DNA of 55,677 bases, filler included, from an uncultured virus (IMG/VR IMGVR_UViG_2512564001_000011) (5 parts of one record of this genome joined end to end with filler, not necessarily neighbours in it); one strand, 5' to 3'. Numbered from the whole stretch's first letter, positions 39,830 through 47,237 are shown. Notes: generated by a model not told the origin, from the sequence alone. A program made the numbers and translations.

Positions 39830-41761
39830 ATGCAAGATAAGCGTTCCTATAGTCTGTTGACAATAAAATCGGTCAATGAGGAAAAGCGAGAAATAAAAGG
39901 GGTAGCCACCACACCGTCGTCTGATTCTTACGGTGATATCGTCGATCCCGACGGTGGGGTATTTACGTTGCCTATCCCTCTGCTATGGCAACACAATCAT
40001 GACGAACCTATCGGGGAAGTCACAGAAGCTAAAGTCACGAAAGAGGGCATCGAAGTAAAAGCAAAACTAGCCAAAGTGGCATCCCCTTCACGGTTATCAG
40101 CAAGACTTGATGAGGCTTGGGAATCAATAAAATCGGGCCTCGTGAAAGGGCTTTCTATCGGTTTTAGACCGCTTGAATATGTCTTTATTGATGAAGGCGG
40201 AATTCACTTTACAAAATGGCAGTGGTTTGAACTATCCGCTGTGACAATTCCAGCCAACGTAGACTGTAGTCTTCAAACCGTAAAATCATTATTTAAATCG
40301 CCTGCCGCGTCCGGCACTAGGCAAAAAAATAAATTATCAAATTCAAAAGCTGGCGTTTCAGCATCAATTAATAGAAAGGAAAGTCAGATGACTATCGCTG
40401 AACAGATTAAATCATTTGAATCTAAACGCTCGGCTAACGATGCTGCTCGTTTAGACATCATGAATAAAGCCGCCGAAGAAGGCCGCACACTTGACCAGGA
40501 AGAGTCAGAAAACTACGACAACCTAACGGCAGAAATCAAATCGGTGGATGCACATTTATCACGATTGCGTGAAATGCAAGATACGCAGATTAAAACCGCA
40601 AAACCCATTGATAACACTCAAAAATCAATCTTAGACGCAGCGCGTAGTCGTTCCAGCATTGTTAAAGCAGATGAGAAACTCGCTCCAGGTATTGAATTTG
40701 CGCGCTATGTGAAATGTTTAGCATCAGCTAAAGGGAATACCCATCAAGCGCTAGAAATTGCTAAAGCACAATACCCTGAGCAACCGCGTATACAGAATGT
40801 GCTAAAAGCGGCGGTAAGCGCTGGAACAACAACAGATCCAGTCTGGGCCGGTGCACTGGTTGATTATCAAAATTTTGCGGGTGATTTTATTGAATATTTG
40901 CGCCCCAAAACTATCATCGGCCAATTTGGTAACGGAAATATCCCTGCCTTATTTAACGTGCCGTTCAATATTCGCATCCCGGGTCAAATTAGTGGTGGTA
41001 ATGGATATTGGGTAGGACAGGCAGCGCCTAAACCCTTAACGAAATTTGACTTTAAATCTGTCACATTAGGATTTGCTAAAGTGGCTAATATCGCTGTTCT
41101 AACCGATGAGTTAGTGAGGTTTAGCAATCCTTCCGCTGATTTGCTCGTCCGTAATGCGTTAGCCTCGGCAATTATCGAACGTATTGACATTGATTTTATT
41201 GATCCGACGAAAGCAGAAGTAGCGGAAGTATCACCGGCATCCATCACAAATGATGTCACCGCAATAAAATCAACGGGCAATCCAGAAGTCGACGTTGAAC
41301 TGCTATTTGAAGCGTTTATTAAAGCAAATCTAACGCCCACCAACGGTGTATGGCTCATGTCGTCAATGACGGCGCTTGCGCTATCAAAAATGAAAAACCC
41401 ACTCGGTCAAAAAATGTACCCTGAGTTGACCTTGTTAGGTGGCACATTCCAGGGACTCCCTGCGATTGTTTCGCAATATATTGGTACTAATCTCATTTTA
41501 GTGAATTCTTCAGATATTTACCTTGCTGACGATGGACAAGTTGTTATTGAAGCTAGCCGTGAAGCATCATTAGAGATGGAAGGTCAGCCTACCAACAACA
41601 GTAAAACAGGCAAAGGTGCTCAGTTGGTTTCGATGTTCCAGACGAATAGTGTGGCGATTCGAGCTGAACGCTTCATTAACTGGCGTAAGCGCAGAACAGA
41701 AGCAGTAGCGTATGTTTCTGACGTTAATTATAAGACACCGGTTACTACCCCAAAGCCTTAA
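39830..41761 (+). CDS. Fused HK97-type prohead protease and major capsid protein
   Basis: PLLWQH, GLSIGF, ELSAVTIPAN, then capsid domain ending AIRAERFINW; internal RBS and ATG at 40388. Confidence 0.9.
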   Translation: MQDKRSYSLLTIKSVNEEKREIKGVATTPSSDSYGDIVDPDGGVFTLPIPLLWQHNHDEPIGEVTEAKVTKEGIEVKAKLAKVASPSRLSARLDEAWESIKSGLVKGLSIGFRPLEYVFIDEGGIHFTKWQWFELSAVTIPANVDCSLQTVKSLFKSPAASGTRQKNKLSNSKAGVSASINRKESQMTIAEQIKSFESKRSANDAARLDIMNKAAEEGRTLDQEESENYDNLTAEIKSVDAHLSRLREMQDTQIKTAKPIDNTQKSILDAARSRSSIVKADEKLAPGIEFARYVKCLASAKGNTHQALEIAKAQYPEQPRIQNVLKAAVSAGTTTDPVWAGALVDYQNFAGDFIEYLRPKTIIGQFGNGNIPALFNVPFNIRIPGQISGGNGYWVGQAAPKPLTKFDFKSVTLGFAKVANIAVLTDELVRFSNPSADLLVRNALASAIIERIDIDFIDPTKAEVAEVSPASITNDVTAIKSTGNPEVDVELLFEAFIKANLTPTNGVWLMSSMTALALSKMKNPLGQKMYPELTLLGGTFQGLPAIVSQYIGTNLILVNSSDIYLADDGQVVIEASREASLEMEGQPTNNSKTGKGAQLVSMFQTNSVAIRAERFINWRKRRTEAVAYVSDVNYKTPVTTPKP

Positions 41762-41835
41762 CCGCCGATACGACGAAATTTACGGCGGACAGCACAACGT
41801 TAACAGCAGATAGCACAAAAAGTAAGGACAAATGA
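41749..41835 (+). other. -1 frameshift signal and TAD-repeat extension of the capsid protein
   Basis: C CCA AAG, 6-nt spacer, CCGCCG/CGGCGG stem; -1 frame reads ALTADTTKFTADSTTLTADSTKSKDK*. Confidence 0.75.
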
Positions 41836-42092
41836 TGGTAGATATTCAAAAAATCAATATTGGTACAAGTGCTGATGACGGCACTGGCGATACCTTGCGT
41901 AATGCCTTTAGCACAGCCAATGACAACTTTGAAGCGTTGAGTACCCTGCCTGAAAAAGGTGATAAGGGTGATAAAGGCGATACGGGAGTTGGTATTAAAA
42001 AAATAACCTCATCAAAAGAAGGTAAGGTGGTTACGCTAATTATCCAATTAACAGACGGAACAAAACAAACACCTTCATTCGAAATTTCATAA
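41832..42092 (+). CDS. Mini-fibre: T4 gp9/gp10-like N-terminus plus short collagen repeat
   Basis: INIGTSADDGTGDTLRNAF..ANDNF; GDKGDKGDTG. Confidence 0.75.
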   Translation: MMVDIQKINIGTSADDGTGDTLRNAFSTANDNFEALSTLPEKGDKGDKGDTGVGIKKITSSKEGKVVTLIIQLTDGTKQTPSFEIS

Positions 42093-42095
42093 TGA

Positions 42096-42124
42096 AAGGC
42101 GCATATCGCGCCTTTACTTTTTTT
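42096..42124 (+). terminator. Rho-independent terminator
   Basis: AAAGGCGC-ATATC-GCGCCTTT followed by a T-run. Confidence 0.65.
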
Positions 42125-42138
42125 CAGATGGATTAATT

Positions 42139-45243: not shown

Positions 45244-45874
45244 TATTGAAAACGATCTCAACCGGATAATTAAGCTCACGGGTATCACAGGCATGGATGT
45301 TTATCCGTTGCAATTGCCTTCCTGTCATCTTGAGGGGGTCATTTATCAGCGTATCAGTGATCCAAAAGTCATGACGGGGTTGGCAAAAACTAAATTGGTG
45401 CAAGCACGATTTCAAGTAAGGGTTCAATCAGAAGATTATTTAAGCGCCTTGAAGCTAAGCGATAAGATCCGTGATGAATGGGAAGCTATCGAACACGGCT
45501 ATATTGGAAATTATCCCGTGCAAACTGTTCAACGTGGCAATTTGNNNNNNNNNNNNNNNNNNNNNNNNNNNNNNNNNNNNNNNNNNNNNNNNNNNNNNNN
45601 NNNNNNNNNNNNNNNNNNNNNNNNNNNNNNNNNNNNNNNNNNNNNNNNNNNNNNNNNNNNNNNNNNNNNNNNNNNNNNNNNNNNNNNNNNNNNNNNNNNN
45701 NNNNNNNNNNNNNNNNNNNNNNNNNNNNNNNNNNNNNNNNNNNNNNNNNNNNNNNNNNNNNNNNNNNNNNNNNNNNNNNNNNNNNNNNNNNNNNNNNNNN
45801 NNNNNNNNNNNNNNNNNNNNNNNNNNNNNNNNNNNNNNNNNNNNNNNNNNNNNNNNNNNNNNNNGATTCAAGAC

Positions 45875-46279
45875 ATGATAGAGTTTGATATTGAAAACGA
45901 TCTCAACCGGATAATTAAGCTCACGGGTATCACAGGCATGGATGTTTATCCGTTGCAATTGCCTTCCTGTCATCTTGAGGGGGTCATTTATCAGCGTATC
46001 AGTGATCCAAAAGTCATGACGGGGTTGGCAAAAACTAAATTGGTGCAAGCACGATTTCAAGTAAGGGTTCAATCAGAAGATTATTTAAGCGCCTTGAAGC
46101 TAAGCGATAAGATCCGTGATGAATGGGAAGCTATCGAACACGGCTATATTGGAAATTATCCCGTGCAAACTGTTCAACGTGGCAATTTGATACAAGGTAG
46201 GGAAGAGCAGCCAAAAAACAGAACGTTGTACTGGGTTATCCGAGATTTCATCCTGACCTATGCGGAGAATGCAAAATGA
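45875..46279 (+). CDS. Tail terminator-like protein (5' part duplicated at 45230-45544)
   Basis: VYPLQLP, IYQRISD, ARFQV. Confidence 0.75.
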   Translation: MIEFDIENDLNRIIKLTGITGMDVYPLQLPSCHLEGVIYQRISDPKVMTGLAKTKLVQARFQVRVQSEDYLSALKLSDKIRDEWEAIEHGYIGNYPVQTVQRGNLIQGREEQPKNRTLYWVIRDFILTYAENAK

Positions 46280-46689
46280 GAACGTTAGTAGAAGTGAAAG
46301 GCTTAAGCGATCTTGAATCGGCATTAAAAAAATTGGGCGACGAATTTGCGGTTAAGGTTTTACGCAAAGCAGCGAGTGAAGCAATGAAACCGGTGCTCGC
46401 CGATATGAAAGCCCATGCAGGGTTTGATGCGACTAATTCAGGCGAACATATGCGAGATAGCATTAAAATCCGCACTAACAGCAGAATAAAGGACAAAAAA
46501 ACACAAACCGTCGTCACAGTGAGAGTTGGCCCCTCAAAACAACATGCGATGAAAGCGCGCGCCCAAGAGTTTGGTACGGGTAAACAGATAATGCGCCCTT
46601 TTATCCGACCCGCATTGGATTATCACCGTGAATTTATCCTTAATGCCTTGGCCTCAGAAATTCGCGCCAGCATTGAAAAACATCGTTAA
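46276..46689 (+). CDS. HK97 gp10-like tail component
   Basis: QEFGT, PFIRPALD. Confidence 0.9.
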   Translation: MRTLVEVKGLSDLESALKKLGDEFAVKVLRKAASEAMKPVLADMKAHAGFDATNSGEHMRDSIKIRTNSRIKDKKTQTVVTVRVGPSKQHAMKARAQEFGTGKQIMRPFIRPALDYHREFILNALASEIRASIEKHR

Positions 46690-46704
46690 CGAACAGGAGT
46701 TATT

Positions 46705-47163
46705 ATGTCTGAAAATAAAACCTCGCCGGAATATGCCACGCTCCCCGCAGGGACAGTGGTTAAATTTGGCAAACCGGGTGACAGCATTGAAGCGCTAAAA
46801 CCCTTAATTAATTGTAGAGCCTTAGGCGCTACAGGTTTAAGTGGTAGTTTCATCGATTGCACGACACTCATAGACAAAAGCAAACAGTTTTTAGCTGACT
46901 TACCGGAAGGCCCGGAAAAATCACTTGGCTTTGTTGATGATCCGGAAAATGAGAATTTCACTGCGTTTTTAAATGCGGCGCAAACGAGAGAAACGGTTCA
47001 GCTTTATGTTGAGTTGCCAAACAAGCGGACAGCGACAATGATTCTGTCATTATCAGGTTGGGAGATGAATGACATCAATGCGCCCGCCAGTGAAGTGATT
47101 CAGATTACAGTCAAAGGAAAGCAAAATAATCTCACCTGGGGAACAGTACCCCCAAAGCCTTAA
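46705..47163 (+). CDS. Major tail tube protein
   Basis: Position before chaperone and tape measure; IDCTTL..KQFLADL. Confidence 0.85.
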   Translation: MSENKTSPEYATLPAGTVVKFGKPGDSIEALKPLINCRALGATGLSGSFIDCTTLIDKSKQFLADLPEGPEKSLGFVDDPENENFTAFLNAAQTRETVQLYVELPNKRTATMILSLSGWEMNDINAPASEVIQITVKGKQNNLTWGTVPPKP

Positions 47164-47237
47164 CCGCCGATACGACGAAATTTACGGCGGATAATACCAG
47201 GCTAACAACTGACAGCACAAAGAATAAGAACACATAA
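47151..47237 (+). other. -1 frameshift signal and TAD-repeat extension of the tail tube protein
   Basis: Same cassette as at 41749; -1 frame reads ALTADTTKFTADNTRLTTDSTKNKNT*. Confidence 0.75.

Follow-up and report, generated by a model that had tools for sequence, protein, structure and literature searches.

A predicted −1 frameshift cassette shared by the capsid and tail tube genes of an Arsenophonus-type prophage: a candidate docking tag for a small trimeric fibre

Introduction

The frameshift extension of the T7 capsid protein (10A/10B) is 53 amino acids in length and is not immunoglobulin-like (Ig-like). In Lactobacillus phage A2 and the Listeria phages A118, A500, and PSA, frameshift extensions are reported on the major head and the major tail proteins; the same account describes those of A2 and T3 as Ig-like and presents the Listeria cases merely as second products of the coat and tail genes (PMC5009743). 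The tube protein gp12 of Yersinia phage PY54 is listed among those carrying an I-set domain, many such domains being added by frameshifting (PMC9022992). Here we describe a related arrangement in a 55,677-nucleotide stretch of DNA, filler included, from an uncultured virus (IMGVR_UViG_2512564001_000011; hereafter the window), in which the genes for the major capsid protein and the tail tube protein end in the same 42-bp sequence and a small fibre gene lies directly behind the former. On genomic grounds we consider it somewhat probable, at about 0.55, that frameshifted head and tube subunits dock the trimeric mini-fibre encoded by that gene by means of a short tail of heptad repeats.

The homology between PY54 gp12 and the window tube protein (69% identity) allows the two sites to be compared directly. 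PY54 gene 12 ends GTC CCA AAG CCG TGA. Its slippery heptamer is positioned as in the window, the 0-frame stop likewise falls within the spacer, and a hairpin whose loop is again 15 nucleotides long begins 5–6 nucleotides downstream. In contrast, the PY54 −1 frame is the annotated open reading frame (ORF) ORF13, a folded Ig-like (I-set) domain of about 90 amino acids found on the tube only and showing no TAD heptads, and the PY54 capsid gene ends in an ordinary terminator and has no linked fibre gene. The shared heptamer thus places the tube site among a known kind of phage frameshift, with a different payload. In A2 and the Listeria phages, as predicted here, head and tail proteins each gain a C-terminal extension on a fraction of subunits; unlike the window tag, neither these extensions nor those of T7 and T3 are described, in the account cited, as heptad repeats or as linked to a fibre. 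The first-pass annotation of the window had presented the whole arrangement as unusual, which was overstated, given that both head and tail proteins are extended in A2 and the Listeria phages and that PY54 has the tube site too.

Anatomy of the cassette

The genes and signals concerned are as follows.

39806 to 41761, + strand: prohead protease–major capsid protein fusion, 651 amino acids (Pfam Peptidase_S78, 3.6e-9; Phage_capsid, 3.2e-14)
46705 to 47163, + strand: major tail tube gene, 152 amino acids (Pfam Phage_TTP_13, E 9.3e-64)
41749 to 41755, + strand: slippery heptamer C_CCA_AAG in the capsid 0-frame; the capsid genes of Arsenophonus, Morganella, and contig L248/L276 have it at the equivalent position
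47151 to 47157, + strand: slippery heptamer C_CCA_AAG in the tube 0-frame, with a homologous heptamer in PY54 gene 12
41762 to 41788, + strand: capsid hairpin, CCGCCG/CGGCGG stem (41762–41767 with 41783–41788), folding at −10.4 kcal/mol, z −1.8, in a 52-nucleotide context
47164 to 47190, + strand: tube hairpin, identical to the capsid copy, stem 47164–47169 with 47185–47190, folding at −13.1 kcal/mol, z −2.5, in a 52-nucleotide context

The 42-bp string occurs twice only, both times on the + strand, at 41748–41789 and 47150–47191, with no mismatches between the copies, and two matches to it were found in none of 100 dinucleotide shuffles. In the 0 frame the capsid gene ends ..ACC CCA AAG CCT TAA (product ..TTPKP) and the tube gene ..CCC CCA AAG CCT TAA (product ..TVPPKP). 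The heptamer in both genes is an in-frame X_XXY_YYZ sequence, on which both tRNAs can re-pair, and C_CCA_AAG is reported to be highly shift-prone in Escherichia coli (PMC5009743). Each 0-frame stop falls inside the 6-nucleotide spacer (TAA at 41759–41761 in the capsid gene and 47161–47163 in the tube gene). The hairpin, a 6-bp GC stem with a 15-nucleotide loop, begins 6 nucleotides 3' of the heptamer in both cassettes, a distance within the 5–9 nucleotides expected for bacterial −1 frameshift stimulators. Its two arms are at the same time the Thr-Ala-Asp (TAD) codons of heptads 1 and 2 of the −1 frame, spaced 21 nucleotides apart. The repeat at the two 3' ends, the heptamer, the stop-containing spacer, the CCGCCG/CGGCGG stem, and the three-heptad translations of the −1 frames had all been set out in the first-pass annotation, and each was found as it had described.

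Across 11 cassette copies, stem pairing is kept in 97% of 66 cells, with one compensatory change (C-G to U-A, in Morganella) and two further changes that preserve wobble pairing. The combination of C_CCA_AAG with a hairpin 5–7 nucleotides 3' of it is built from differing sequences in Morganella, in L248, in the capsid gene of Arsenophonus genome G304, and in PY54. In the capsid lineage L248/L276 the heptamer and the 6-nucleotide spacer are kept and are followed by a different 5-bp hairpin, the −1 frame reading PKVITVDNAEVTTDTTHRRIN up to its stop. Within a genome the capsid and tube cassettes have variants in common (GCCTTAA in the window, GTCATAA in G304), which suggests exchange between the two sites.

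Tagged proteins might instead arise through a change in length of the C-run and A-run (CCCCCAAAG), either by replication slippage, and hence phase variation, or by transcriptional slippage. One extra C in the window tube gene would fuse the tail in frame; in two prophages of one genome (L229 and L230) the tube C-run before AAAG counts 8 C in one against 7 C in the other, with a change of frame; and in contig L234 a run of 10 A has to be crossed before the heptads are reached. However, the capsid copy has 4 C only, the conserved spacer and hairpin would have no role, and no indels are seen at the slippery sites in the run contigs (X2 and X3 for the capsid gene; X2, X3, and X6 for the tube gene), although contigs hide rare variants. 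We regard slippage as improbable. The L229/L230 difference may reflect a hypermutable tract or a homopolymer sequencing error. As for the A-run, the heptads of L234 and L153 (around 1400–1495), an AT-rich viral contig, are reached from the upstream ORF only across it (GAT TTA AAA AAA AAA TCT TAA), and it may be a second frameshift route or site of slippage, or else an assembly error.

The −1 frame as coding sequence

A ribosome slipping at either heptamer would translate one of two extensions.

41749 to 41835, + strand: capsid −1 extension, PK-ALTADTTK FTADSTT LTADSTK SKDK; its stop, TGA at 41833–41835, overlaps the start of the fibre gene
47151 to 47237, + strand: tube −1 extension, PK-ALTADTTK FTADNTR LTTDSTK NKNT; its stop is TAA at 47235–47237

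Up to their stops the −1 frames read PKALTADTTKFTADSTTLTADSTKSKDK (capsid) and PKALTADTTKFTADNTRLTTDSTKNKNT (tube), each extension comprising 26 amino acids and three ΦT[AT]DxTx heptads; the tube stop lies 15 nucleotides before the tail assembly chaperone gene (47253). Neither cassette has an ATG, GTG, or TTG ahead of the heptads in the −1 frame, which would therefore be reachable by a change of frame only. Searches with the extension gave no Pfam family up to E 1, Ig-like folds (Big_2, I-set, FN3) included, and no PDB sequence up to E 10, in keeping with the original description of a short repeat peptide of some 26 amino acids rather than a domain.

The coding potential of the three frames was compared over 11 distinct cassette copies, drawn from several Arsenophonus genomes (capsid or tube genes) and from Morganella (capsid genes).

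−1 frame: stop in 0 of 11 copies; mean amino-acid identity 0.72; synonymous share of codon differences 37%
0 frame: stop in 11 of 11 copies; mean amino-acid identity 0.60; synonymous share of codon differences 7%
+1 frame: stop in 10 of 11 copies; mean amino-acid identity 0.61; synonymous share of codon differences 17%

A −1 frame in use should be conserved in relatives, and it is kept in homologues that have the cassette, being open in all 11 copies. Its heptad motif is retained in Morganella and L248, and a three-heptad tube tag like that of the window is found also in L004, L005, and L142. One cassette copy encodes a serine by TCC where others use AGT, and in contigs of two other sequencing runs ACG ACG in the loop is replaced by AGT ACA, in the −1 frame a change of Thr to Ser plus one silent change. 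From these comparisons the −1 frame looks to be coding and under protein-level constraint, and the case for predicted frameshifting is well supported.

It might be argued that the repeat acts as an RNA element alone, a stabilizing or processing hairpin after two highly expressed genes, the open −1 frame being incidental. Relatives do have terminator-like hairpins right 3' of their capsid and tube genes (in those without the module, L023, L024, and the phiKO2 annotation, one directly follows the capsid stop), and two mutations change the peptide but keep the stem. Yet the third heptad, though not part of the hairpin, is conserved, the frame statistics favour coding, the capsid cassette hairpin has no U-tract and was not called in the terminator scan, neither cassette has an Rfam family match, and the real terminator stands behind the fibre gene. 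An RNA role alone is, in our estimation, very improbable.

42095 to 42124, + strand: terminator-like hairpin with a T-run directly 3' of the fibre gene (terminator scan)

Many Arsenophonus prophages are degraded, the L005 capsid pseudogene and the L003 tube gene cut by an integrase being examples, and the tube heptamer is common to PY54, whose −1 frame encodes 90 amino acids. The cassette could accordingly be viewed as the functionless, decaying remnant of a longer extension, such as a PY54-like Ig domain, copied between genes by recombination. Such decay is difficult to reconcile with a heptad pattern that Arsenophonus, Morganella, and L248 all retain although their DNA has diverged, with the enrichment of synonymous changes in the −1 frame, or with the lack of TAD heptads in the PY54 extension, and the same motif serves as an in-frame C terminus in unrelated phages, as described below. 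We hold this origin to be quite improbable.

The mini-fibre and its linkage to the tag

The gene that overlaps the end of the capsid −1 frame has the following form.

41832 to 42092, + strand: small collagen-like mini-fibre gene, 85–86 amino acids, with a gp9/gp10-like N terminus, GDK GDK GDT GVG triplets, and a C-terminal beta domain

From its sequence, the 86-residue product reads as a short trimeric fibre. It scores 2.4e-4 against Pfam T4_gp9_10_N (PF07880), at 21.7 bits compared with a curated cut-off of 25 bits, and its N terminus matches the gp9/gp10 families PHROG 677 (E 7.6e-6) and 958 (2.8e-5). Residues 5–43 align to residues 3–39 of T4 gp10 with an E value of 0.0044 (INIG..DDGTGD.LR....N.NF), the stretch held in common with the gp9/gp10 family amounting to only about 35 residues. 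Gly-X-Y triplets number four in the window protein and many more in its homologues, some of which match Pfam Collagen (PF01391); such repeats, in so small a product of the head module, are reminiscent of decoration of the SPP1 gp12 type. The AlphaFold2 model of the monomer has a helix at 18–35 and a beta domain at 54–85 with a predicted local distance difference test score (pLDDT) of 85–92, the mean pLDDT being 68 and the N terminus of low confidence; a Foldseek search of the PDB with this model gave nothing at E below 0.19.

Homologues of the mini-fibre number 36 in Arsenophonus and Morganella, among them an Arsenophonus protein of 96% identity. The family is modular, with two unrelated N-terminal types, a variable Gly-X-Y count, and two C-terminal types (beta domain or coiled coil). 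The N terminus is either gp9/gp10-like or of the form MSYTKTNWENSP..NLNNIE, and the second type was not found in the three Arsenophonus genomes searched. A search among isolated phages returned cyanophage gp9 N termini only and no cultured model phage.

Tag and fibre gene occur together. Among 80 capsid homologues from viral contigs, the heptamer, the heptads, and a downstream fibre gene are all present in 6, and none of the three is present in the other 74; the −1 stop overlaps the fibre start (TGATG or TAATG) in every one of the 8 distinct cassettes that have a fibre gene behind them. In a 61-kb contig the module lies instead behind the tube gene, in the order tube, tag, fibre gene, chaperone. 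The Arsenophonus genome G304 has the same layout as the window, with a capsid tag and fibre gene and a three-heptad tube tag that is not followed by one. The tag and the fibre gene at 41832–42092 thus appear, from these comparisons, to be gained and lost as a unit.

The linkage also bears on the possibility that the frameshifted tail is functional without being a fibre dock, serving as a weak adhesion or modification site, or else that the overlapping TGATG couples translation of a fibre that binds elsewhere. Ig-like domains of the kind found in PY54 are thought to mediate weak adhesion (PMC9022992), and the tail would here take the place of the domain that the same PY54 tube site adds; its richness in Thr, Ser, Asp, and Lys would also suit adhesion or modification. 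The Thr-rich tail could be taken for a glycosylation site; a Pfam scan of the window ORFs from 36046 onward detected no glycosyltransferase. For coupling, the overlap in 8 of 8 fibre-followed cassettes is what would be predicted. However, the window tube tag keeps its three heptads with no fibre gene behind it, and the tails of distant phages are in-frame C termini with no stop/start overlap that nevertheless stand directly before a fibre gene. Both observations point to a relation between proteins and not to translational coupling, and a tail with a role other than docking seems to us unlikely.

Heptad tails before fibre genes in other phages

The pairing of heptad tail and fibre N terminus extends beyond the Arsenophonus-type cassettes. 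Searches keyed on the fibre N terminus alone returned viral contigs that are unrelated and for the most part AT-rich. Heptad-spaced [LIVFYMW]x[AVITS]D motifs directly upstream of the fibre genes were scored. The sequence upstream of 28 distinct fibre genes has four heptads in 1 case, three in 14, two in 10, and one or none in 3, such that at least two heptads stand directly upstream of 25 of the 28 (20 of 23 among loci found through the fibre motif). By comparison, control gene starts in the same loci scored in 8 of 3,184 cases, of which 7 were the same cassette seen from a neighbouring ORF and 1 was unrelated.

The tails comprise 18 distinct sequences, borne by proteins of some seven kinds and most often as in-frame C termini such as LTVDSDL-ITVDSDT-ITADKTEL, ITVDTNL-IKADNTS-IKVDQTLI, and FSADTTT-VKADSTL-FTADATQRP, each followed by a stop. 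The carriers are the capsid and tube proteins (by predicted frameshift), a family of proteins of 63–76 amino acids, and four others of 97–195 amino acids. The small tail-carrying proteins of the distant contigs belong to no family in Pfam or PHROG and matched nothing in isolated phages.

Proposed mechanism and its weighing

The tag-fibre linkage and the breadth of the pairing lend genomic support to a tag-and-dock mechanism of the following kind. A fraction of the ribosomes on capsid and tube mRNAs would slip back one base at C_CCA_AAG, stalled there by the GC hairpin 6 nucleotides downstream, and, instead of ending at ..PKP, would append a tail of about 26 amino acids with three ΦT[AT]DxTx heptads. 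As the tail replaces the C terminus, it should sit on the outer face of capsomers and tube. C-terminal additions lie outside both in HK97-fold capsid proteins, as in T7 10B display, and in siphovirus tube proteins such as lambda gpV and T5 pb6. There the tail may act as a docking peptide for the gp9/gp10-like N-terminal domain of the trimeric mini-fibre encoded at 41832–42092. Sub-stoichiometric head and tail subunits would then bear short fibres, with an occupancy set by the efficiency of frameshifting, and the overlap of −1 stop and fibre start (TGATG) may also couple fibre synthesis to tag synthesis. What the sequences show is the anatomy of the signal, the conservation of the −1 frame, the linkage of tag and fibre gene, and the wider pairing of heptad tails with this fibre N terminus; the frameshift event itself, the binding of tail to fibre, and their stoichiometry are inferred.

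A broader proposal, which we advance tentatively and think rather less than an even bet, is that the heptad tail ΦT[AV]DxTx, usually in three copies, and the gp9/gp10-like N terminus constitute a general and portable plug and socket, by which tailed phages might attach trimeric fibres to any of their structural proteins. With three heptads in tandem, each chain of the fibre would be offered one, and the 1:3 symmetry mismatch would be resolved. In the Arsenophonus and Morganella phages, the plug would have been transferred to the capsid and tube proteins downstream of a −1 site, which would set the number of fibre-bearing subunits and tie fibre translation to tag synthesis.

Several observations weigh against the docking mechanism. 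The hairpin is modest (6 bp with a 15-nucleotide loop; z −1.8 and −2.5) and the covariation of its stem is weak, the observed score being reached by 44 of 500 shuffles; the stem varies too little for covariation to carry statistical weight. Two C-to-T changes in endosymbiont copies keep the stem by wobble but break the TAD motif (to IAD and TVD). The 28 fibre genes are not phylogenetically independent, they represent a subfamily only, since the searches were keyed on one sub-motif (DGTGDTLRDAF or close), and 3 of them lack the tail. No such heptads are found in the proteins encoded upstream of gp9/gp10 in T4 and P-SSM7, and P-RSM6 has only a looser two-repeat ending before gp9/gp10. In the window (47817–53483), moreover, the tape measure gene is not followed by any distal tail or baseplate genes, and the tail module of this prophage looks truncated or interrupted; the element may be defective.

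The docking idea of the first-pass annotation gains from the comparative evidence (6 against 74 capsid loci, and 25 of 28 fibre genes), and its strict form, one heptad per chain of a trimer, is weakened. Three is the commonest number of heptads, but natural tags in Morganella, Arsenophonus nasoniae, and L248 have two, a misfit to that form; the endings of the two-heptad tags (KRKVN, KRRIN) may align with the core of a third repeat.

The host prophage

The region is the late operon of a siphovirus-type prophage of Arsenophonus type, Arsenophonus being an insect-associated bacterium. Its genes run in the order HNH, small and large terminase, protease-capsid, the 86-residue gene, portal, connectors, tube, chaperone, and tape measure, and the nearest match by DNA is a plasmid prophage of Arsenophonus nasoniae, which is 81% identical. 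The capsid fusion matches PHROG 617, major head protein, at 2.8e-187 and has an HK97-type capsid domain; the tube protein is 69–74% identical to those of PY54, phiKO2, and related phages. The cassette site is absent from phiKO2 and from 22 of 26 genomic tube homologues, being present in four Arsenophonus loci only.

Other features of the neighbourhood deserve brief mention. After the tape measure gene, which has a run of N of its own at 49530–49629, come DUF6012, topoisomerase III, and an H-NS-like gene. The 367-residue "tail terminator" ORF (45176–46279) is an artefact of an N run at 45545–45864 flanked by duplicated sequence: about 110 amino acids occur twice in it, and contigs of two runs join 45219 to 45865. 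A 370-residue ORF directly after the portal gene (43473–44585) matches PHROG "portal protein" families over its full length and ends in a CBM_5_12 carbohydrate-binding module; in the Arsenophonus plasmid it is annotated as a gp6-like connector. On the minus strand at 2051–2113, an exact 21-bp tandem repeat of three to four copies, located in a gap that appears to be non-coding, looks like the heptad pattern once translated. In the Arsenophonus nasoniae plasmid paIh1 (L003, 11380–12944) a shortened tube gene is followed by an integrase and two AlpA genes, an arrangement resembling the helper-embedded satellites described as targeting prophage late genes (PMC10111431).

Comparison with known docking systems

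Fibre attachment through a short peptide has precedents of other kinds. Loops of about 23 residues in Mu gp48 (residues 133–155) and A-1(L) gp32 (residues 129–151) are reported to anchor the N terminus of a trimeric fibre (PMC11915804, PMC10966104). As these sources present it, such a loop stands on a monomeric baseplate wedge protein, and it has the length of three heptads. By eye, however, Mu gp48 and the gp49 N terminus show no sequence likeness to the present pair, having neither heptads nor the gp9/gp10 motif, and the Mu and A-1(L) loops are built into baseplate proteins and not added to capsid or tube by frameshift. SPP1 gp12 is described as a very small collagen-like trimer that decorates the centres of capsid hexamers and is dispensable for stability (PMC7602432). 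In the account cited, unlike what is proposed for the mini-fibre, it binds the capsid without a frameshift tag, and no gp9/gp10-like N terminus is reported for it. T4 gp9 and gp10 are given as trimers attached by their N-terminal end (PMC3004832), and a scan of T4 gp6 to gp14 found no heptad chain, which implies that the partner surface in T4 is of another kind or has diverged. Neither the cassette nor a heptad docking tail was found described in the literature searched, which covered few subscription journals and is thus weak evidence of novelty.

If the proposals made here are correct, one and the same cassette uses frameshifting to set how many points of attachment an accessory fibre finds on each of two virion lattices, and the wider pairing would explain fibre attachment in many uncultured phages. 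Two classes of gene without a family, the small tail-carrying adaptors and the mini-fibres, could then be annotated, and a natural 21-residue peptide tag with a small trimeric binder would be at hand for decorating phage particles. The frameshift extensions known from phage heads and tails fold as Ig-like domains, whose role is uncertain; the one described here is a peptide of a few repeats and little else, and a neighbouring gene encodes its likely partner. Tagging of head and tail alike by frameshift is of a known kind, whereas the short repetitive form of the tag, the mini-fibre gene linked to it, and the broader association of tail with fibre appear to be new.

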